From UHGV virus genome UHGV-1627304: a DNA stretch of 12,211 nt. The stretch is one strand, 5' to 3'. How positions within the stretch are numbered: the first letter of the stretch is position 1; each line of letters begins with the position of its first letter. This DNA is from a virus. The notes beneath the pieces are model-generated. The model had not been told where the DNA came from. It searched no databases and saw only the letters and a program-made list of their open reading frames with translations. Of this stretch, positions 740-10,793 are shown in pieces. Both the position numbers and the translations under genes were made by a program.

Positions 740-879
740 ACGTCCTCCTTTTCCTGCGGTAGTGGTAAAACTCCTGTTGGTGTTCTTTCACACCGGAGAC
801 ACCATCGATTCCAGTAAGGTTGATTTGGTCTGAAGCGGTTATCTTCTTTGCATTCACCGCACCGATCACATCGCATCAT
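706..879 (-). CDS. ninD: NinD protein (57 aa, Cys-rich)
   Basis: Internal start of the 77-aa track ORF: [61 protein letters not shown] overlap with the ninB stop fixes the start at 879. Length and position match lambda ninD. Confidence 0.75.
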
Positions 880-1316
880 GCTGCCCGGTCTCCCCATCGC
901 GCTTTCCATTCGAGAGCCAGTCGCGCTTCGTCTGACCACTTAACGCCACGCTCTGTACCGAATGCCTGTATAAGCTCTAATAACTCCGCAAATTCGCTTA
1001 CACGCATCCTGCTGGTTGACTGGCCTATTACCACAAAGCCATTCCCGGCAAGGTTAGGAACAACGTCCTGCTGCTTTAATGCAGCTGTAAAAACGCACTT
1101 CCAGCTTTCTGCATCCAGCCAGCGACCATGCCATTCAACCTGACGAGAGACGTCACCAAGGCAAGCCCAAAGCTTTCGATTCTGGTCTAAGCTGCGGTTG
1201 CGTTCCTGAATGGTTACTACGATTGGTTTGGTTGGGTCTGGAAGAATTTGCTGTACCGCGTGAATAGCGTTTTGCTGATGTGCTGGAGATCGAATTTCAA
1301 AGGTTAGTTTTTTCAT
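876..1316 (-). CDS. ninB: NinB recombination protein (146 aa)
   Basis: [55 protein letters not shown]... is near-identical to lambda NinB as recalled. Start taken at the internal Met (track ORF begins 6 codons upstream at 1334). Confidence 0.9.
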
Positions 1317-1331
1317 GACTTCCCTCTCCCC

Positions 1332-1364
1332 CAAATAAAAAGGCCTGCGATTACCAGCAGGCCT
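1332..1364 (-). terminator. Intrinsic terminator on the minus strand between helicase and ninB (tR2-like position)
   Basis: Minus-strand read: aggcctgc-tggtaatc-gcaggcct followed by TTTTTATTTG. 8-bp GC-rich stem, 8-nt loop, T-tract. Confidence 0.6.
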
Positions 1365-1389
1365 GTTATTAGCTCAGTGATGTAGATGG

Positions 1390-2766
1390 TCATACGTCAG
1401 CCCCTTGTGCATATCGTCTGCCACGCGCAGCAGGTGCATTTGATGCTGTGCAAATCTGTCTGGCTTCATCCTGGTCACATGCAACAAAGTGTCCGTTACA
1501 GAACCGCTGGTAAACCGTACCAAGCGAGCCAAAACGGTTTTTCGTCACGATGATTTCAGCAAATGGCGCGGCGCTACTGTTCTCGTCATATACCGCTTCC
1601 CGATAGAGCATGATGATTGAGTCTGCGTCCTGCTCAATGCTTCCTGAATCACGCAAATCTGCGTTTGTCGGGCGTTTGTTTGGTCGCTTCTCAACATCGC
1701 GCGAAAGCTGACTTAGGGAGATCACAGGCGTTTTCAGGTCTTTCGCCATCGCCTTAAGGCTTCCGGAGATGTGAGCAATTGCGAGGTCGTTGCGATCTGC
1801 TTTCGGCTTCTCAATCAGGCCAAGATAATCCACCATGATGAGTGAGAGGTTTGGATTTTCCTGTTTGTGCCGTTCTGCGATTGAGCGTATTTCTTCGACC
1901 GATAACCGCGAGGCATCGACTACCCATACATCCAAATCTGCAAGCTGACTCATGCCGTTAGCAACGCGCGCCCAGCCTTCGTCATCCATCGCTGCAGGAT
2001 TTCGCAGCACACTAACCGACATCCTCCCGGCGTTGGCAATGCTTCGCTCTGCAATCTGCAATGCGCTCATTTCCATTGAGAAAATCAATACCCCGCGCCG
2101 GACGTCAGAACCAGGAATAACGCGGCTTGCAACGCCTTCGGCAATCTTCAGCGCCAGTTCGGTTTTCCCCATACCAGGACGAGCAGCGATTATCACCAGG
2201 TCTTCCGCGTTCATCCCTCCGGTGATGGCATCAAGTTCTTCGATTCCGGTCTTCAGGGTATCGGACTCTTCTCCGTTCCTCAGACGCCTGTCAAGCGTGT
2301 CAGTGTAGTCAGTAATGATTTCCCCTAACCGTACAGGTTTTACCTCGTCACGGGGCTTTCTGATGGCTGAAAGACGCTTTACAAGTTCATCCATCGCCTG
2401 ACTCGATGCGTCGATGGTTCCGCTCTGAATTGGTTCACGCATTTCATCCATGATTTCCAGCACCAGTCGGCGGTGATAGTTATCCGCGACCATTCCGGCA
2501 TATCCCTTCAGGTTTGCGGCACTCGGGCAGTTTTTGCTGGTCATCAGGATTGACGTGAAATGCTCCTCTCCGCACGCCTCGGCAACCATCAGTGCGTCGA
2601 TTAGGTTTCTGTTTCGCGCCTGCTTGCGGATAACCTCGAAGGCTTTCCGGTAGAGCGGAATTGAAAACGCTTCCGGCTCCAGCGTTGCCAGAACGTCACT
2701 GGCGGTTGGTGTTAATCCACCAATCAGCAGGCCACCGATAACGCTCGCTTCGATATCCTGTCTCAT
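1390..2766 (-). CDS. DnaB-family replicative DNA helicase (phage P22 gene 12-like), 458 aa
   Basis: Walker A motif [10 protein letters not shown]; overall DnaB-like architecture and length. Not lambda P (a helicase loader). ATGA overlap with the upstream O-like gene. Confidence 0.9.
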
Positions 2767-3584
2767 GCAATCCCCCTGTCTGCAAACTTCCCTTCCCGAA
2801 CTCCCGTTAACGAGTCTTCTCTCAGCAGGTAATCAAAATCAGCCGTCCAGCCCGTGTCGTTGTCTCCGAAGTAAAACGGCTTGGCCTGATGCACAAACGC
2901 CCTGACATACGCTCTGAAACCGTCCACGTTTGGCGTTTTCAGTTGCGGGATGATTTTCTTCAGGCGGCGTTTGCGTTTCTCGTTGACCGCAACAGCGTGT
3001 GGCAGTCTGTCACCGACTTCGGTGTTGTAAGCGTTCAGGAAGGATTCGTAGTCGATTCGTTCTGCCTTGCGACGTTCAGGTTTAACCTGCCCATCGCCGC
3101 CCCCGTTAGGGGGTAAGGGGGTATTTGTATTTATTGTCTTTTGTATATTGTCTTTTGTGTTTAGCTGACTTGGCTTATACCCATTAGCCGACTTGGCTAA
3201 TGTTTTATTAGCTGTTTTAGCTAATGTTAAGCTGTCCTGGCTAATCCACTGAGAAACCACCTTGTTCACTCCGATTTTCACGCCATCAGCAATGAGGAAT
3301 TTACGCTCAATAAGCTGGCGCTTGGCAGCGCAAACATGAGTGTGATGAATACCTGTCATGGCTGCTATCTGCGTGTTTGTGAGTCGATCCATCGGCTTAT
3401 TGAATCCGTATGTCTTGCGCATGATAGCGAGCATCACCTTCAACTGCCGGACGGTTAAATCAGCCATCAGCAGACTGTCGGTAATCTCGTTAGCAACGCG
3501 CATGAAACCATCTTCGGTATCTGCCACGCGATGCTCCACGACCTCCAGTTGAGGCCTGTAATCAGCTAACTTAACGACGCCCAT
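2763..3584 (-). CDS. Replication initiation protein, lambda O / P22 gene 18 family (273 aa)
   Basis: N-terminal region ([38 protein letters not shown]) resembles the lambda O N-terminus (ADLTKRQFKVLLAILRKTYGWNKPMDRITDSQL, from memory). Iterons and an AT-rich tract lie inside the gene, as in lambda ori. Confidence 0.85.
3121..3245. repeat. Candidate replication origin: four ~19-bp iterons plus adjacent AT-rich tract, inside the O-like gene
   Basis: Iterons read directly: 3161-3179 ttagctgacttggcttata, 3184-3202 ttagccgacttggctaatg, 3208-3226 ttagctgttttagctaatg, 3227-3245 ttaagctgtcctggctaat. Each has a TAGC...GCTA dyad. AT-rich 3121-3160 contains a direct repeat attgtcttttgt x2. Confidence 0.7.
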
Positions 3585-3732
3585 GTTTCACTCCTGCTTT
3601 GGCTAGTCTGTAAACACCAACAAGGCGCTCTGCGAACGCCCTGTTATTTGCTGCGGCTACCACTAATCCCTCAGGTGAATCAGGGTGTCGAATCTCTTCT
3701 TTTTCCTGGTATTTCTTACGACGTTTTGTCAT
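3571..3732 (-). CDS. Hypothetical small basic protein (53 aa) between cII/oop and the O-like gene
   Basis: Own translation: [60 protein letters not shown] 5 nt upstream of ATG at 3732; 3' end overlaps the O-like start by 14 nt. Under 60 aa, so absent from the ORF track. Confidence 0.4.
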   Translation of the reverse strand: MTKRRKKYQEKEEIRHPDSPEGLVVAAANNRAFAERLVGVYRLAKAGVKHGRR

Positions 3733-3744
3733 AATTACTCCTGT

Positions 3745-3820
3745 GGATTGATCCAGTAATGACCTCAGAATTCCATCTGGATTTGTTCAGAACGCTCGGT
3801 TGCCGCCGGGCGTTTTTTAT
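3745..3820 (+). ncRNA. oop: oop-like antisense RNA overlapping the 3' end of cII
   Basis: Plus-strand sequence ...gatccagtaatgacctcagaattccatctggatttgttcagaacgctcggttgccgccgggcgTTTTTTATT matches lambda oop RNA and its terminator hairpin as recalled. 5' end approximate; a possible -10 (ataatt, 3731-3736) lies just upstream. Confidence 0.65.
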
Positions 3821-4058
3821 TGGTGAGAATCGAAGCAACTTGTCGTGCCAATCGAGCCATGTCGTCGTCAACGACACCCCATTCAAGAACAGCAAGCAGC
3901 ATTGAGAACTTTGGAATCCAATCCCTCTTCCACCTGCTGATCTGCGACTTATCAACTCCCACAGCTTCCGCTGTCTTCTCAGTTCCAAGCATTGCGATTT
4001 TGTTAAGCAACGCACTCTCGATTCGTAGAGCCTCGTTGCGTTTGTTTGCACGAACCAT
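3765..4058 (-). CDS. cII: Transcriptional activator CII (97 aa)
   Basis: MVRANKRNEALRIESALLNKIAMLGTEKTAEAVGVDKSQISRWKRDWIPKFSMLLAVLEWGVVDDDMARLARQVA... is essentially lambda CII. Start at the internal Met with the classic TAAGGAAATACTTACATATG ribosome-binding region. Confidence 0.95.
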   Translation of the reverse strand: MVRANKRNEALRIESALLNKIAMLGTEKTAEAVGVDKSQISRWKRDWIPKFSMLLAVLEWGVVDDDMARLARQVASILTNKKRPAATERSEQIQMEF

Positions 4059-4075
4059 ATGTAAGTATTTCCTTA
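4035..4075 (+). promoter_or_regulatory. pRE-like promoter with CII-binding direct repeats TTGC-N6-TTGC
   Basis: ttgcgtttgtttgc at 4035-4048 on the + strand, within the cII 5' end, followed by aagtat as candidate -10. Matches lambda pRE architecture. Confidence 0.6.
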
Positions 4076-4137
4076 GATAACAATTGATTGAATGTATGCA
4101 AATAAATGCATACACCATAGGTGTGGTTTAATTTGAT

Positions 4138-4168
4138 GCCCTTTTTCAGGGCTGGGATGTGTAAGAGC
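4138..4168 (-). promoter_or_regulatory. nutR site (boxA CGCTCTTACA and boxB GCCCTGAAAAAGGGC on the minus strand); tR1-like region lies just downstream at about 4095-4128
   Basis: Plus strand shows gccctttttcagggc (4138-4152) and tgtaagagcg (4159-4168), the reverse complements of lambda nutR boxB/boxA. The cro-cII spacer matches the lambda tR1 region as recalled. Confidence 0.7.
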
Positions 4169-4176
4169 GGGGTTAT

Positions 4177-4386
<210 letters not shown>

Positions 4387-4399
4387 TTAGTACATGCAA

Positions 4400-4470
4400 C
4401 CATTATCACCGCTAGAGGTAAAATAGTCAACACGCACGGTGTTAGATATTTATCCCTCGCGGTGATAGAT
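4400..4470. promoter_or_regulatory. Right operator OR1-OR2-OR3 with divergent PR (minus strand, cro) and PRM (plus strand, cI)
   Basis: 17-bp sites read directly: OR1 4404-4420 tatcaccgctagaggta, OR2 4428-4444 caacacgcacggtgtta, OR3 4451-4467 tatccctcgcggtgata. PR -10 (gataat) and -35 (ttgact) on the minus strand at 4402-4407 and 4425-4430. cI ATG at 4478 directly follows the PRM region (leaderless arrangement as in lambda). Confidence 0.85.
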
Positions 4471-4474
4471 TTAA

Positions 4475-5191
<717 letters not shown>

Positions 5192-5209
5192 TTTTAAGGA
5201 AATATCTTC

Positions 5210-5650
5210 ATGAGAGAAGAAAAAATAATAACAATCTACACAACGGCGGTAAAACCCGGGCTGGCAATCACTCCTTTTATGACACCAGATCCTATAATAG
5301 TGTCGGAAGAATACCCTTGTTCCGGCTCATTTTACCTAACTGCAATAATGTACTTCGAGCACGAAAAAAAATACACTACCGAACTTGATGTCGTATTCAA
5401 TGGAGAATCGGTTTTACCTGATATCTCTAGCAATCAAGAGCAACTGCAAACATTTATGTTTTCTCCTGTCAATGAAAAATATGTTGTGGTTGGCACATAT
5501 CTTTTCGTTAAAAACATCAAACTTATAGAAACAGGAACATATGACATAATTTATCGCATCTTTGAAGACATTGATGGTAATCTTAGCGAAGTTATTGATG
5601 AAAAAAAATGCGCTCTTATTTCAACCACCCCGAACAGAGATAAGGAATGA
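5210..5650 (+). CDS. Hypothetical protein (146 aa, no predicted TM segment), first gene of a two-gene cassette at the rexA/rexB position
   Basis: ORF starts 19 nt after the cI stop with AAGGA SD; ATGA overlap with the next gene. Visibly AT-rich. No motif I recognise; not RexA-like in size or sequence. Confidence 0.75.
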   Translation: MREEKIITIYTTAVKPGLAITPFMTPDPIIVSEEYPCSGSFYLTAIMYFEHEKKYTTELDVVFNGESVLPDISSNQEQLQTFMFSPVNEKYVVVGTYLFVKNIKLIETGTYDIIYRIFEDIDGNLSEVIDEKKCALISTTPNRDKE

Positions 5651-6003
5651 AACGACATCTGTACGCTGTGCCTCTTGACAGGAGTAAAGTTGATAATTTT
5701 CCACATAACCACCATAATGATGAGACATATGGTGGTGGTAACGGTGGAGGTGGTGACATGTTACAGCGCATAAAAATTCTTGAAGATAAAGTCGCAACCA
5801 TGGCGACCGACATCGCTGTAATTAAGTCTAACTATGCAACATCTGCCAATGTAGAATCTGTTAAAACAGACATAGCTAATGCAAAAGCAGAACTTCACAG
5901 CGCAATGAGACTCCAAGCCATGGCTATTATTGGTTCAGTTCTTGCAGCCGTTGGAACTGGTGTTGGGTTAATAATAAAAATGATGCCATCACTACCTCAC
6001 TAA
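5647..6003 (+). CDS. Hypothetical small membrane protein (118 aa from ATG 5647, or 82 aa from ATG 5758): His/Gly-rich N-terminus, predicted coiled-coil, C-terminal hydrophobic helix
   Basis: Translation MKRHLYAVPLDRSKVDNFPHNHHNDETYGGGNGGGGDMLQRIKILEDKVATMATDIAVIKS...LQAMAIIGSVLAAVGTGVGLIIKMMPSLPH. Hydrophobic stretch AMAIIGSVLAAVGTGVGLII near the C-terminus. An internal in-frame ATG at 5758 has a better SD (GGAGG, 7-nt spacing). Followed directly by a terminator. Confidence 0.7.
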   Translation: MKRHLYAVPLDRSKVDNFPHNHHNDETYGGGNGGGGDMLQRIKILEDKVATMATDIAVIKSNYATSANVESVKTDIANAKAELHSAMRLQAMAIIGSVLAAVGTGVGLIIKMMPSLPH

Positions 6004-6015
6004 GAATCTACACAA

Positions 6016-6040
6016 CCCGGCCTCAGCGCCGGGTTTTCTT
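6016..6040 (+). terminator. Intrinsic terminator ending the cI operon (timm-like)
   Basis: cccggc-ctcagc-gccggg stem-loop (6016-6033) followed by TTTTCTTT. The flanking sequence matches the lambda region between rexB and PL as recalled. Confidence 0.75.
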
Positions 6041-6194
6041 TGCCTCACGATCCCCCAAAAAACGCATAACCAATTGTATTTATTTCAAAATTAATAGATA
6101 CAACTCACTAAACATCGCAATTCAGATCTCTCGATCACCTTCCCAATCCACACAACCCTGCAAAAAAATAAATCTATATAAAAAACATACAGAT

Positions 6195-6264
6195 AACCAT
6201 CTGCGGTGATAAATTATCTCTGGCGGTGTTGACATAAATACCACTGGCGGTGATACTAAGCACA
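6195..6264 (+). promoter_or_regulatory. Left operator OL3-OL2-OL1 with PL promoter
   Basis: OL3 6195-6211 aaccatctgcggtgata, OL2 6215-6231 tatctctggcggtgttg, OL1 6239-6255 taccactggcggtgata. PL -35 ttgaca 6229-6234 and -10 gatact 6252-6257. Classic lambda PL sequence. Confidence 0.85.
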
Positions 6265-6297
6265 TCAGCAGGACGCACTAACCACCATTGAAGGTGA

Positions 6298-6328
6298 GGC
6301 TCTTAAAAATTTAGCCCTGAAGAAGGGC
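6298..6328 (+). promoter_or_regulatory. nutL site (boxA-like GCTCTTAAAAA, boxB GCCCTGAAGAAGGGC)
   Basis: boxB hairpin gccctgaagaagggc at 6314-6328 with boxA-like sequence just upstream, in the PL leader ahead of N. Confidence 0.7.
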
Positions 6329-6438
6329 GGCATTCAAAGCAGAAAGCTTTGAGTAGCGCGAAATGCAGCTGCAAGACAGCAACCGTGGAGATAAGCATCA
6401 CGGCGCGTTACTCAAAGCTAACTGACAGGAGAATCCAG

Positions 6439-6771
6439 ATGGATGCACAAGCACGCCGCCGCGAACGTCGCGCAGAGAAACAGGCTCAATGGAAAGCAGC
6501 AAATCCCCTGTTGGTTGGGGTAAGCGCAAAACCAGTTAACCGCCCTATTCTCTCGCTGAATCGCAAACCGAAATCACGAGTAGAAAGCGCACTGAATCCG
6601 ATAGACCTTACGGTGCTGGCTGAATACCACGAACAGATTGAAAGCAACCTGCAACGTATTGAACGCAAGAATCAGCGCACATGGTACAGCAAGCCACGCA
6701 GTGAAATGGGTGTGACTTGTGTTGGTCGCCAGAAGCAACGCGGAAAATCAATTCCAGCTTATTACGATTGA
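6439..6771 (+). CDS. N: Antitermination protein N (110 aa)
   Basis: MDAQARRRERRAEKQAQWKAANPLLVGVSAKPVNRPILSLNRKPKSRVESALNPIDLTVLAEYHEQIESNLQRIERKNQRTWYSKP... matches lambda N (arginine-rich boxB-binding motif at the N-terminus); C-terminal ~20 aa diverge. Start at 6439 with GGAGAA SD, not the upstream ATG at 6349. Confidence 0.9.
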   Translation: MDAQARRRERRAEKQAQWKAANPLLVGVSAKPVNRPILSLNRKPKSRVESALNPIDLTVLAEYHEQIESNLQRIERKNQRTWYSKPRSEMGVTCVGRQKQRGKSIPAYYD

Positions 6772-6917: not shown

Positions 6918-6974
6918 CAGGTAACTTAAGCGTATTTACTTTCGCAGCAAACCACTTATTTGAGAGGAATTAAT

Positions 6975-7598
6975 ATGTCATCAATCCGCTTAACTACGAG
7001 AATGAAAGAGAAAATCGCTCGTAACGCTTTAATTAAGTCTGGGGTTTTCACTGAACTTGAAGAAGTAACAAAGTTAAAGAACCAGCTTGCACTTGACGCC
7101 AGAGTTATTGCGTTTGGCGGTAAAAAGAAAACTGAGGAAGTGGATCAGTTATCATCCAGGTTAGTAGCTATAAGTGAAGAACTTGAAAAGATGGGATGTT
7201 CATTTTACTCATACGATGTTCGTTCTACTTCAATTTATCTGACTGTATCTGGCAGAAGGGTTGGATGGCATTCATATGGGAAAGACGGCAACGGCGAAGA
7301 TATATTGCTCCCTACTCCAACCAAAGATAAATGCATGTTTGATGCAGAACACGAAATAACAAAAAGGTTTGATGAAATCTGCGCATTGCAACAAAAACTT
7401 GAAGCCAAGAAAAAGGATATCGAATCAAATGTATGGGCTGCTTTGAACTCAGTCACAACAGTTAAGCGACTTATTGAAGTTTGGCCTGAAAGCAAAGAAT
7501 TGCTACCAAAAGAAGCAGACAAAGCAAGTACAGCACTTCCTGCTTTACGGGTAGAAGATTTGAATAAGATGATTGGACTTCCTTCCGAGTCCGCATAG
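6975..7598 (+). CDS. Hypothetical protein (207 aa), unknown function, at the position lambda uses for ral/sieB-type accessory genes
   Basis: Long ORF with GAGAGGA SD 6 nt before ATG at 6975 (track shows a TTG-initiated extension from 6960). AT-rich. Lys/Glu-rich helical-looking stretches. No motif recognised. Confidence 0.75.
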   Translation: MSSIRLTTRMKEKIARNALIKSGVFTELEEVTKLKNQLALDARVIAFGGKKKTEEVDQLSSRLVAISEELEKMGCSFYSYDVRSTSIYLTVSGRRVGWHSYGKDGNGEDILLPTPTKDKCMFDAEHEITKRFDEICALQQKLEAKKKDIESNVWAALNSVTTVKRLIEVWPESKELLPKEADKASTALPALRVEDLNKMIGLPSESA

Positions 7599-8348: not shown

Positions 8349-9056
8349 ATGGATTTGAACAAATTCGATGAGCCATTCAGCCCTGAAGATATCGAATGGC
8401 GAATACAGCAAAGCGGTAAAACACGCGATGGCAAGGTGTGGGCTATGGTGCTGGCTTATGTCACGAACCGGGCAATCATGAAACGCCTGGACGATGTTTG
8501 CGGCAAAGCAGGATGGCGCAATGAATACCGCGATATTCCCAACAACGGCGGAGTTGAATGCGGCATATCAATCAAGATTGATTCCGAATGGGTAACCAAA
8601 TGGGATGCTGCTGAAAACACGCAGGTAGAAGCCGTCAAAGGTGGTCGTTCAGGTGCAATGAAGCGTGCTGCCGTTCAGTGGGGAATCGGTCGGTATCTGT
8701 ATAACCTTGAGGAAGGTTTTGCACAAACATCTCTCGATAAAAAGCAGGGGTGGCACAGGGCAAAACTGAAGGATGGAACAGGATTTTACTGGCTCCCTCC
8801 ATCGCTGCCTGGATGGGCAATCCCAGCATCAGATAACAAACCATCACCAGAAAATACCAACCAGAAATCTCCATCGGTTGACTGCGAACAAATCCTGAAA
8901 GACTTCAGCGATTATGCGTCAACAGAAACTGACAAGAAAAAACTCATCGAGCGTTATCAGCGTGACTGGCAATTAATGGCTGGCAACGAGGAGGCGCAGG
9001 CTAAATGCGTTCAGGTAATGAACATCAGAGTTAACGAACTAAAACAGGCGGCATAA
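8349..9056 (+). CDS. Rad52-family single-strand annealing protein (phage recombinase), 235 aa
   Basis: Motif region GGRSGAMKRAAVQWGIGRYLYNL resembles the conserved Rad52/Sak-type N-terminal domain. Occupies the position lambda gives to bet. GAGGTGA SD upstream. Confidence 0.8.
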   Translation: MDLNKFDEPFSPEDIEWRIQQSGKTRDGKVWAMVLAYVTNRAIMKRLDDVCGKAGWRNEYRDIPNNGGVECGISIKIDSEWVTKWDAAENTQVEAVKGGRSGAMKRAAVQWGIGRYLYNLEEGFAQTSLDKKQGWHRAKLKDGTGFYWLPPSLPGWAIPASDNKPSPENTNQKSPSVDCEQILKDFSDYASTETDKKKLIERYQRDWQLMAGNEEAQAKCVQVMNIRVNELKQAA

Positions 9057-9524
9057 ATGTCTCACTTGGACGGAATTATTAAAAGATTCGAGTCCAGCTA
9101 CAAAGTTAATGAAACAACAGGTTGCTGGGAGTCTACCTATTCAAAAAACAAAGGAGGATACACAAAATTTGTAGCCTTTGGCGTAACAATGCTTTCTCAT
9201 CGTGTTGCTTTTGAGCTTTATCACTCCCCCATTCCATCTGGGAAGATGGTTTGCCACAAATGCGATAACCCATGCTGCGTTAATCCTGAACATCTCTTTT
9301 TAGGTAGCGCGCAAGAAAACATGGACGACAAGATAGCAAAAGGAAGGCATCGTGGAGCCAAGAAAGGTCATGCTCATCATGGTGCAAAATTAACAGAGTG
9401 GCAGGTTATAGAAATTAGGAAAAGACTCTCTGAAAAAGAGAGTCAGTACAAGATAGCAAAAGACATGGGTGTATCTCAATCAATTATAAGCAACATAAAA
9501 ACTGGCAAGAGGTGGAGCAAATGA
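9057..9524 (+). CDS. HNH homing endonuclease (155 aa)
   Basis: HNH signature ...[58 protein letters not shown]... ATG directly abuts the recombinase stop (TAAATG); its stop overlaps the ssb start (ATGA). Confidence 0.8.
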
Positions 9525-9994
9525 GTTCTCGCGGGATAAATAAGGTGATTATCCTTGGTCGGGTAGGACAAGACCCGGAAGTTCGATACTCACCATCAGG
9601 AACGGCATTTGCAAACCTTACAGTTGCTACGTCAGAACAATGGCGTGATAAGCAAACTGGAGAGCAAAAGGAGCAGACGGAGTGGCACCGTGTGGTAATG
9701 AGCGGGAAACTGGCAGAAATTGCCAGCGAATATCTGCGAAAAGGCTCTGAGGTTTATCTTGAAGGCAAATTACGGACAAGAAAATGGCAGGATCAAAGCG
9801 GACAGGATAGGTTCACTACCGAAGTCATCGTGGGCGTTGGTGGAACCATGCAAATGCTTGGTGGCAAGCAAGGAGGCAATGAACAGTCTTCACCTCAGCG
9901 AAATAACGGTCAGCAACAAAGACAGCAACCTCAGCAGCATGGAAATCACAGCGAACCACCTATGAACTTCGACGATTCGGATATTCCGTTCTAG
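9521..9994 (+). CDS. ssb: Single-stranded DNA-binding protein (157 aa)
   Basis: [59 protein letters not shown]... with C-terminal acidic tail DDSDIPF. Highly similar to E. coli SSB as recalled. Start at ATG 9521 rather than GTG 9512. Confidence 0.9.
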
Positions 9995-10496: not shown

Positions 10497-10793
10497 ATGC
10501 CAGCGCCTTTGTATGGTGCGGATGACGCGCGCCGCTGTTCCGGCAATTCCGTATCGGAGGTGCTGGATAAATTCAGAAAAAACTACGATCGGATAATGTC
10601 GCTACCGCAGGAAACGAAAGAGGAAAAGGAATTTCGCCACTGTATATGGCTTGCAGAGAAAGAAGAACGCGAGCGAATTTACCAGACATCAATCCGACCA
10701 TTCCGCAAAGCAACATATACCCACTTCCCTGAATATATCGACCCGCGCCTGCGTAATTACCGCTCACGCTATGGCGCTATCAGTAATGACTGA
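10497..10793 (+). CDS. Hypothetical protein (98 aa)
   Basis: ORF with AGGAG SD 6 nt upstream; same strand and operon context as its neighbours. No motif recognised. Confidence 0.6.

Follow-up and report, generated by a model that had tools for sequence, protein, structure and literature searches.

The replication regions of phages HK97, P22 and lambda are the closest described counterparts of the locus analyzed here, which lies in a 12,211-nucleotide stretch of the virus genome UHGV-1627304 (hereafter the window) and consists of a lambda-like cII gene, a small open reading frame (ORF), an O-like replication initiator and a DnaB-family helicase. The HK97 replication cassette was published by Juhala et al. 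(2000), as cited in PMC3349717 and PMC9836094, and a comparative lambdoid map of the cII-oop-orf-O-P region, including the 162-nt ORF of HK97, is given in PMC3349717 (legend to Fig. S2). The iterons of P22 lie inside gene 18 (PMC8022706), and P22 gp12 is named there as a DnaB-type helicase, with reference to Wickner (1984). Initiators vary together with the iteron specificity, and replication regions must be exchanged as whole units (PMC8022706). A hybrid phage combining lambda immunity with P22 replication (imm-lambda repP22) gave equal, normal bursts on wild-type and dnaB-GrpD55 hosts, whereas lambda fails on the latter at low multiplicity (PMC3349717, Table 5). For the present locus, an earlier note made from the sequence had proposed that a lambda-type immunity/cII/oop block is joined to a P22-type replication module.

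Lambda-type sequence flanks a non-lambda replication cassette

Our analysis indicates, with high confidence, that the region is a natural lambdoid module boundary, at which a lambda-type early regulatory block (N, PL, cI, OR, cro, nutR, cII and most of oop) is joined to an HK97-type cassette that replaces O-P-ren. The genes, compiled from program-made ORFs and a Pfam domain search, are listed below. Those of the early-right operon are all on the minus strand, and the window runs opposite to the lambda map.

4478-5191, plus strand: cI, with Pfam Peptidase_S24 plus a helix-turn-helix (HTH) domain
4177-4377, minus strand: cro, 66 residues, from the ORF list and Pfam Cro
3765-4058, minus strand: cII, 97 residues, lambda allele (Pfam Phage_CII, E = 1.7e-48)
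3571-3732, minus strand: 53-residue ORF, equivalent of HK97 gp53
2763-3584, minus strand: O-like initiator, 273 residues, equivalent of HK97 gp54 (Pfam Phage_rep_O, E = 5.8e-33)
1390-2766, minus strand: DnaB-family helicase, 458 residues, equivalent of HK97 gp55 and P22 gp12
1313-1393, minus strand: hydrophobic ninA-like ORF of 26 residues, overlapping the helicase stop and the ninB start
about 876-1316, minus strand: ninB (Pfam NinB)

A blastn comparison of the window against lambda 34000-42000 yielded a single 1468-bp alignment with an identity of 98.1% over 3725-5192, which spans cI, OR, cro, nutR, cII and 8 nt at the start of O; the near-identity of cI, OR, cro and cII to lambda assigns the block to imm lambda. 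Further matches were found at 6014-6351 (91%, PL/OL/nutL), 6413-6695 (98%, N) and 875-1393 (95%, from the end of ren to ninB), and there was no lambda alignment at all over 1394-3724. The lambda O-P-ren segment has thus been replaced.

The window was aligned with HK97, P22 and lambda in MAFFT, and the resulting four-way alignment of 2.9 kb was scored by segment. The cII gene shares 98.0% nucleotide identity with lambda (288/294), compared to 49.5% with HK97 and 52.7% with P22 c1. The identities to HK97, P22 and lambda are 100% (3585-3729), 38% and 19%, respectively, for the 53-residue ORF; 99.4%, 53.7% and 44.8% for the N-terminal part of the initiator gene; 100%, 68% and 51% for the iteron/origin segment; 98.5%, 55.5% and 29.8% for the C-terminal part of the initiator gene; and 97.1%, 84.0% and 34% (the last being noise) for the helicase gene. 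In windows of 50 columns, the identity to lambda drops from 92-100% across 3731-4088 to at most 27% from 3705 onward, far beyond chance. Judged on these identities, the cassette is HK97-type and belongs to the wider P22 18/12 family. Nothing in this analysis contradicts the mosaic reading.

These results bear out the claim of the earlier note that a lambda-type immunity/cII/oop block adjoins a replication module foreign to lambda, and they agree with its description of an O-like initiator and a 458-residue DnaB-family helicase in place of lambda O plus P, given the Phage_rep_O and the N- and C-terminal DnaB domains. The finding that the note had named as fatal to its proposal, replication genes as close to lambda as the immunity genes are, did not appear: the immunity genes are 98% identical to lambda, against 30-51% of nucleotides for the initiator, and the helicase has no similarity to P.

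Both type switches fall within conserved linkers

The joints were mapped from the alignment columns at which lambda and HK97 differ. At the upstream joint, the last lambda-specific bases are 3761/3762 and the first HK97-specific base is 3749, the exception being an isolated synonymous site at 3771. The sequence type switches from lambda to HK97 within 11 bp, 3750-3760, between the cII stop codon (3765-3767) and the Shine-Dalgarno (SD) sequence and ATG (3744-3730). At the downstream joint, the sequence is HK97-specific up to 1379 and lambda-specific from 1361, and the switch back to lambda type lies at 1362-1378, just past the helicase stop codon (1390). Across the 2.9-kb alignment, only two blocks reach a four-way identity of at least 80% in windows of 30 columns, and both type switches fall inside them.

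3723-3761: upstream conserved linker, 39 bp, holding the -10 element of the oop promoter pO, the oop start, the SD sequence AGGAG and the ATG (3732-3730, minus strand)
1362-1393: downstream conserved linker, 32 bp, holding the start of the 26-residue ninA-like ORF and a GC-rich hairpin followed by a T run

In the upstream linker, the ATG at 3732-3730 is the lambda O start codon (window 3732 = lambda 38686), which here starts the 53-residue ORF. Since the switch is located upstream of the SD sequence and ATG, the ORF is part of the incoming replication module rather than a filler of the joint. The gap between cII and the initiator gene (3585-3764) is exactly 180 bp and carries this ORF with AGGAG placed 6 nt upstream of its ATG, just as the prediction of a gap of about 180 bp holding a small SD-preceded ORF would have it. 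In the downstream linker, the P22 record has ninA and terminator L2 annotated at the homologous place. Lambda, HK97 and P22 all share the 5' part of the 26-residue ninA-like ORF without any change, and it is here that the downstream exchange point lies.

Functionally constrained blocks that are shared among phages and flank a cassette on both sides are the pattern expected of homologous exchange. From the position of the two switches only, we infer that the mosaic is best explained by homologous recombination at the conserved linkers.

The initiator, the helicase and the predicted origin

The initiator matches Phage_rep_O (PF04492) over residues 19-113 with 113.7 bits against a cut-off of 28.7, and belongs to PHROG 345; a sequence search of the PDB found no solved relative. 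It shares 42% amino acid identity with lambda O in the N-terminal DNA-binding domain only (residues 17-149, corresponding to residues 19-152 of lambda O). Beyond residue 149, no significant match to lambda O was detected, and thus no lambda-O-type C-terminal domain of the kind that interacts with P. The stop codon of the initiator gene overlaps the start codon of the helicase gene by 4 nt in the sequence ATGA (2763-2766).

The helicase has both the N-terminal DnaB domain (PF00772, E = 4.5e-13) and the C-terminal domain DnaB_C (PF03796, E = 9.3e-79). Residues 5-428 match chain 6bbm_A and other solved chains named "Replicative DNA helicase" with an E-value of 9e-67, and the protein contains a Walker A motif (ARPGMGKT) and a Walker B-like motif (LIMVDYL), which altogether place it in the DnaB family. 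The helicase is therefore, as the earlier note had it, a true DnaB homologue. Its Pfam domains are all of the DnaB family, and a comparison with lambda P gave no similarity (best E = 0.42), and accordingly no lambda-P-like protein. A full-length gp18/gp54-like initiator linked through the ATGA overlap to a full-length DnaB homologue is the arrangement of the P22 18/12 and HK97 gp54/gp55 modules.

The initiator gene also contains the predicted origin.

3120-3245: predicted origin within the initiator gene, with iterons and then an AT-rich segment

A repeat search revealed four palindromic iterons of 16-17 bp at 3163-3245, of the TTAGCY-N5-7-RGCTAA type and spaced by 20-24 bp. They are followed by an AT-rich segment at 3120-3160, which holds an AT-rich direct repeat (3130-3159) and a 12-nt run that is invariant in all four phages. 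Iterons and AT-rich segment fall where the gene encodes the linker joining the two domains of the initiator, align with the lambda iterons and the P22 rep_origin, and are arranged as in an origin lying within the initiator gene. HK97 has identical iterons, whereas the iterons of both P22 and lambda are different; an origin specificity of the HK97 type is therefore predicted, in keeping with the published link between initiator variation, iteron specificity and the exchange of whole replication regions (PMC8022706). Its function as an origin is suggested by the precedent of lambda and P22 (PMC8022706).

Based on these features, we propose that a transcript from PR, antiterminated by N at nutR, would read through cII, gp53, the initiator and the helicase in turn, and that the ORF overlaps of 14 nt and 4 nt may couple their translation. 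The N-terminal winged-helix domain of the initiator would bind the four iterons within its own gene, and the gp18-type C-terminal domain would then recruit the phage DnaB-type hexameric helicase to the adjacent AT-rich segment, where the helicase would work together with host primase and DNA polymerase III. Hijacking of host DnaB in the manner of lambda P would not be involved. Indeed, a lambda-P-style capture of host DnaB is dispensable for the P22 homologues, for which this is established, and by analogy it is reasonable to expect the same of the present module, as the earlier note suggested.

The 53-residue ORF and the hybrid oop region

The 53-residue ORF overlaps the start of the initiator gene by 14 nt and is assigned to PHROG 1331, a family of unknown function, with an E-value of 1.4e-37; it had no Pfam or PADLOC match. 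At least two unrelated types of initiator are preceded by gp53, namely the HK97 type in the window and the Sf6 type in phage HK633 (locus 3512-3673). As gp53 occurs in HK633 together with lambda cII and an Sf6-type initiator, it has been exchanged independently of the initiator. P22 and ECONIH5 have a non-homologous small ORF (orf48/DUF2740) at the place of gp53.

The same ORF covers the -35 region of pO, the promoter of the antisense RNA oop. The features of this region are as follows.

3743-3819, plus strand: oop antisense RNA of about 77 nt, overlapping the 3' end of cII, placed from lambda/HK633 homology and its terminator
3730-3735, plus strand: conserved -10 element of pO, CATAAT, from the sequence
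4036-4049, plus strand: cII-binding box of PRE, TTGC-N6-TTGC, an exact pattern match (TTGCGTTTGTTTGC) overlapping the cII start

The terminator scan identified the oop terminator, the counterpart of lambda tO, as a stem-loop at 3789-3816 on the plus strand followed by a T run, and a stretch annotated in HK633 as "similar to lambda oop mRNA" corresponds to 3750-3819 with one mismatch. Across the whole window, no Rfam family was matched at gathering thresholds, so that oop and nut could be placed solely through lambda/HK633 homology and the terminator scan. The 5' end of oop at about 3743 is our assumption, carried over from lambda coordinates. With oop starting there, the switch at 3750-3760 falls inside its 5' end, and positions 3736, 3745 and 3749 of the promoter and 5' end differ from lambda. 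The oop RNA is thus predicted to be a hybrid, in which the promoter and first nucleotides would be of the HK97/P22 type and the remainder of the lambda type.

The hybrid pO promoter spans 3707-3735 on the plus strand. Its -35 element lies within the 53-residue ORF and reads TGGTAT or CTGGTA, with 2-3 of 6 matching positions, and is weaker than the TTGAGT of lambda. In a consensus promoter scan of the window, PR was called and pO was not, owing to this poor -35. The sequence TTGC-N6-TTGC was found twice against 1.05 expected and is not significant as a pattern alone; the box at 4036-4049 is assigned to PRE because of its position at the cII start, and the HK633 annotation labels the same site as lambda PRE/cII.

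Given this layout, one might speculate, although we consider it doubtful, that the 53-residue ORF is an independently exchangeable adaptor, which always takes over the lambda-O SD-ATG and sets, via translational coupling or promoter occlusion, both the expression of DnaB-type replication modules and the strength of the oop antisense control of cII.

Recurrence of the junction and alternative explanations

Several considerations limit our interpretation. Illegitimate recombination followed by selection would give an identical pattern at the linkers, and the breakpoints are defined relative to two reference phages, which are not the true parents. Phage HK633 already combines lambda cII with gp53, and so the latest crossover might be located anywhere in 3554-3760. 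As for function, the contact between initiator and helicase, the firing of the origin and the independence from host DnaB are predicted for this allele from the precedent of P22 and lambda; the GrpD55 experiment itself demonstrates that the P-DnaB interaction can be dispensed with, a result that does not extend to DnaB as a whole. The expression of oop, finally, is assumed, given the weak -35 element and a pO that was not called.

The third of these points deserves attention. Over 3554-4171, HK633 and the window are 99.8% identical; the match begins 30 nt within the initiator gene and takes in gp53 and cII as far as nutR. Beyond 3554 the two part, HK633 having an Sf6-type initiator and another helicase, which marks a further exchange point at about 3554. 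Lambda cII with gp53 and gp53 with the HK97 initiator are thus both combinations in circulation. An alternative that we regard as possible, albeit rather unlikely, therefore places the latest recombination inside or at the far end of the 53-residue ORF (3554-3749), between an HK633-like parent with lambda cII and gp53 and a parent with gp53 and the HK97 initiator and helicase. HK97 in turn matches the window at 100% over 3585-3749, and gp53, being common to both candidate parent types, would have provided about 200 bp of perfect homology for the crossover. However, 3585-3749 contains no informative sites, which makes a crossover within gp53 indistinguishable from one at the upstream linker; moreover, it would leave the identity of the locus unchanged and the boundary between lambda- and HK97-type sequence at 3750-3760. 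The recombination joint had earlier been placed near 3570-3745. This interval misses the type switch, which lies 5 nt outside it, but is included in the range 3554-3760 that may hold the latest crossover.

Returning to the exchange at the conserved linkers, the next point is the source of the cassette. A direct acquisition from a P22-like Salmonella phage would make the module strictly P22-type, and is appealing in view of the helicase, which is 90% identical to P22 gp12 in amino acids and 84% identical to gene 12 in nucleotides, with stretches of 96-100% (1474-1673), and of the AT-rich segment, 94% identical to the annotated P22 rep_origin. The rest of the module tells against it. The initiator shares only 51% amino acid identity with gp18 over residues 10-265, near its full length and including the C-terminal domain (about 55% of nucleotides with gene 18); the iteron region (3171-3245) reaches no more than 44-52% identity with P22 and has different repeat units, and hence not the iteron specificity of P22; and the 53-residue ORF could not be aligned with P22 orf48 and is not homologous to orf48/DUF2740. 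By contrast, HK97 and many E. coli and Stx phages are 97-100% identical across the whole cassette, and we therefore consider a direct P22 origin very improbable. The label "P22-type" given to the module by the earlier note holds at the level of the family, as seen from the helicase, and fails at the level of the allele, which is HK97-type.

The HK97-type cassette and its lambda-type junction recur in other genomes. A megablast search of 1300-4500 against 50,697 phage records returned HK544, mEp213, HK97, HK446 and many Stx phages as the best matches. The lambda-cII/gp53 junction is shared by HK633 (99.8%) and vB_EcoP-683R2 (99.4%), each in a single alignment across it, and by HK629 through 3827. 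At least 80% of 1300-4500 is carried by 45 complete E. coli genomes, and the region aligns in one piece, with identities of 98.3-98.6%, in chromosomes such as those of EC28 and AVS0969. An assembly chimera, in which reads of two co-resident lambdoid prophages were joined across a shared repeat, would suit the position of the switches in short sequences common to many prophages, which are typical sites of mis-assembly; but the identical junction in the independently sequenced HK633 and vB_EcoP-683R2 and in complete E. coli chromosomes excludes such an artefact for practical purposes. Equally negligible is the idea of divergence rather than exchange, with lambda O and P as the ancestors of replication genes that have evolved fast: the homology to lambda O in the N-terminal domain of the initiator (42%) would fit it, yet the helicase, a DnaB homologue over its full extent, shows no similarity to lambda P, the C-terminal domain of the initiator is unrelated to O, and the identity to lambda steps from 98% to below 45% within about 40 bp in DNA that is 100% identical to HK97.

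Other features of the window

At the position of lambda rexA-rexB (5193-6013, plus strand), directly after the cI stop codon, the window has an 821-bp cassette of low GC content (36-41%) with two ORFs.

5210-5650, plus strand: first ORF of the cassette, 146 residues, overlapping the second
5647-6003, plus strand: second ORF of the cassette, 118 residues

Neither Pfam nor PADLOC gave a match to the cassette, PHROG gave only weak matches of unknown function, and megablast found no match among the 50,697 phage records. Of 5,426 complete E. coli genomes, only 4 have it, with identities of 99.9-100%. In ECONIH5 it follows a different repressor and adjoins a different replication module; its occurrence behind another repressor indicates that it moves as its own unit. 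The cassette is more unusual than the lambda/HK97 junction, and is a candidate for an exclusion or defence cassette expressed by the prophage.

The early-left operon contains, past N, an ORF at 6960-7598 (plus strand) for a 212-residue Nmad5 protein (nucleotide modification associated domain 5) with a full-length domain match (E = 4e-72), assigned to PHROG 1965 of unknown function. The window further encodes a Rad52/22-type annealase (8349-9056) and an SSB (9512-9994). Between them, an HNH endonuclease gene (9057-9524, plus strand; HNH_3 and a C-terminal HTH) abuts the annealase gene and overlaps the SSB gene, and looks like an insertion of the homing-endonuclease type in the recombination module. 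An Abc2 anti-RecBCD protein of the P22 type is encoded at 10497-10793 (plus strand; E = 4e-61), and its presence makes the recombination/anti-RecBCD functions P22/HK97-like rather than similar to lambda Red/Gam.

Comparison with known systems

Among the known systems, lambda O-P(-ren) has the same map position between cII and ninB, the same SD-ATG at its left edge, a common N-terminal domain of O, and an initiator gene that harbours four iterons and an AT-rich segment. Compared to lambda, the cassette of the window lacks P and ren, has an initiator with an unrelated C-terminal domain, and brings its own DnaB-type helicase. The orf48-gene 18-gene 12 region of P22 is alike in that a small ORF begins at the conserved SD-ATG, the gene of an O-like initiator next to it contains iterons and an AT-rich origin, and a DnaB-type helicase comes last, but it differs in the initiator allele, the iterons and the non-homologous small ORF.

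A laboratory hybrid designed with lambda immunity and P22 replication has reportedly been in use since the 1970s-80s. This recombinant, lambda cI857(18,12)P22 or lambda hy106, combines lambda immunity with an initiator and helicase of the P22 family, grows in E. coli and overcomes the dnaB-GrpD55 block that stops lambda (PMC3349717); it differs from the present locus in having the P22 rather than the HK97 alleles. Replication of the prophage should follow P22/HK97 rather than lambda rules, with a DnaB-type helicase of its own and the origin specificity of HK97 but neither P nor ren, and the prophage is probably insensitive to groP-type dnaB alleles of the host. The swap of the replication cassette as a unit is consistent with the need for a matching initiator, origin and helicase.

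The closest relative is gp53-gp54(O)-gp55(P) of HK97 (NC_002167, 29720-32062), which has an identical gene order with identical overlaps and iterons and is 97-100% identical in nucleotides over 1385-3764. HK97 differs in its cII allele, and hence in lacking the lambda-type cII junction, and in carrying gp56/gp60 downstream of the helicase, where the window returns to lambda-type sequence. The patchwork of lambda cII and HK97 replication genes is itself already documented, and nothing in the junction is new. Altogether, the locus is a clean textbook case of lambdoid modular exchange, which matters little beyond its correct annotation.

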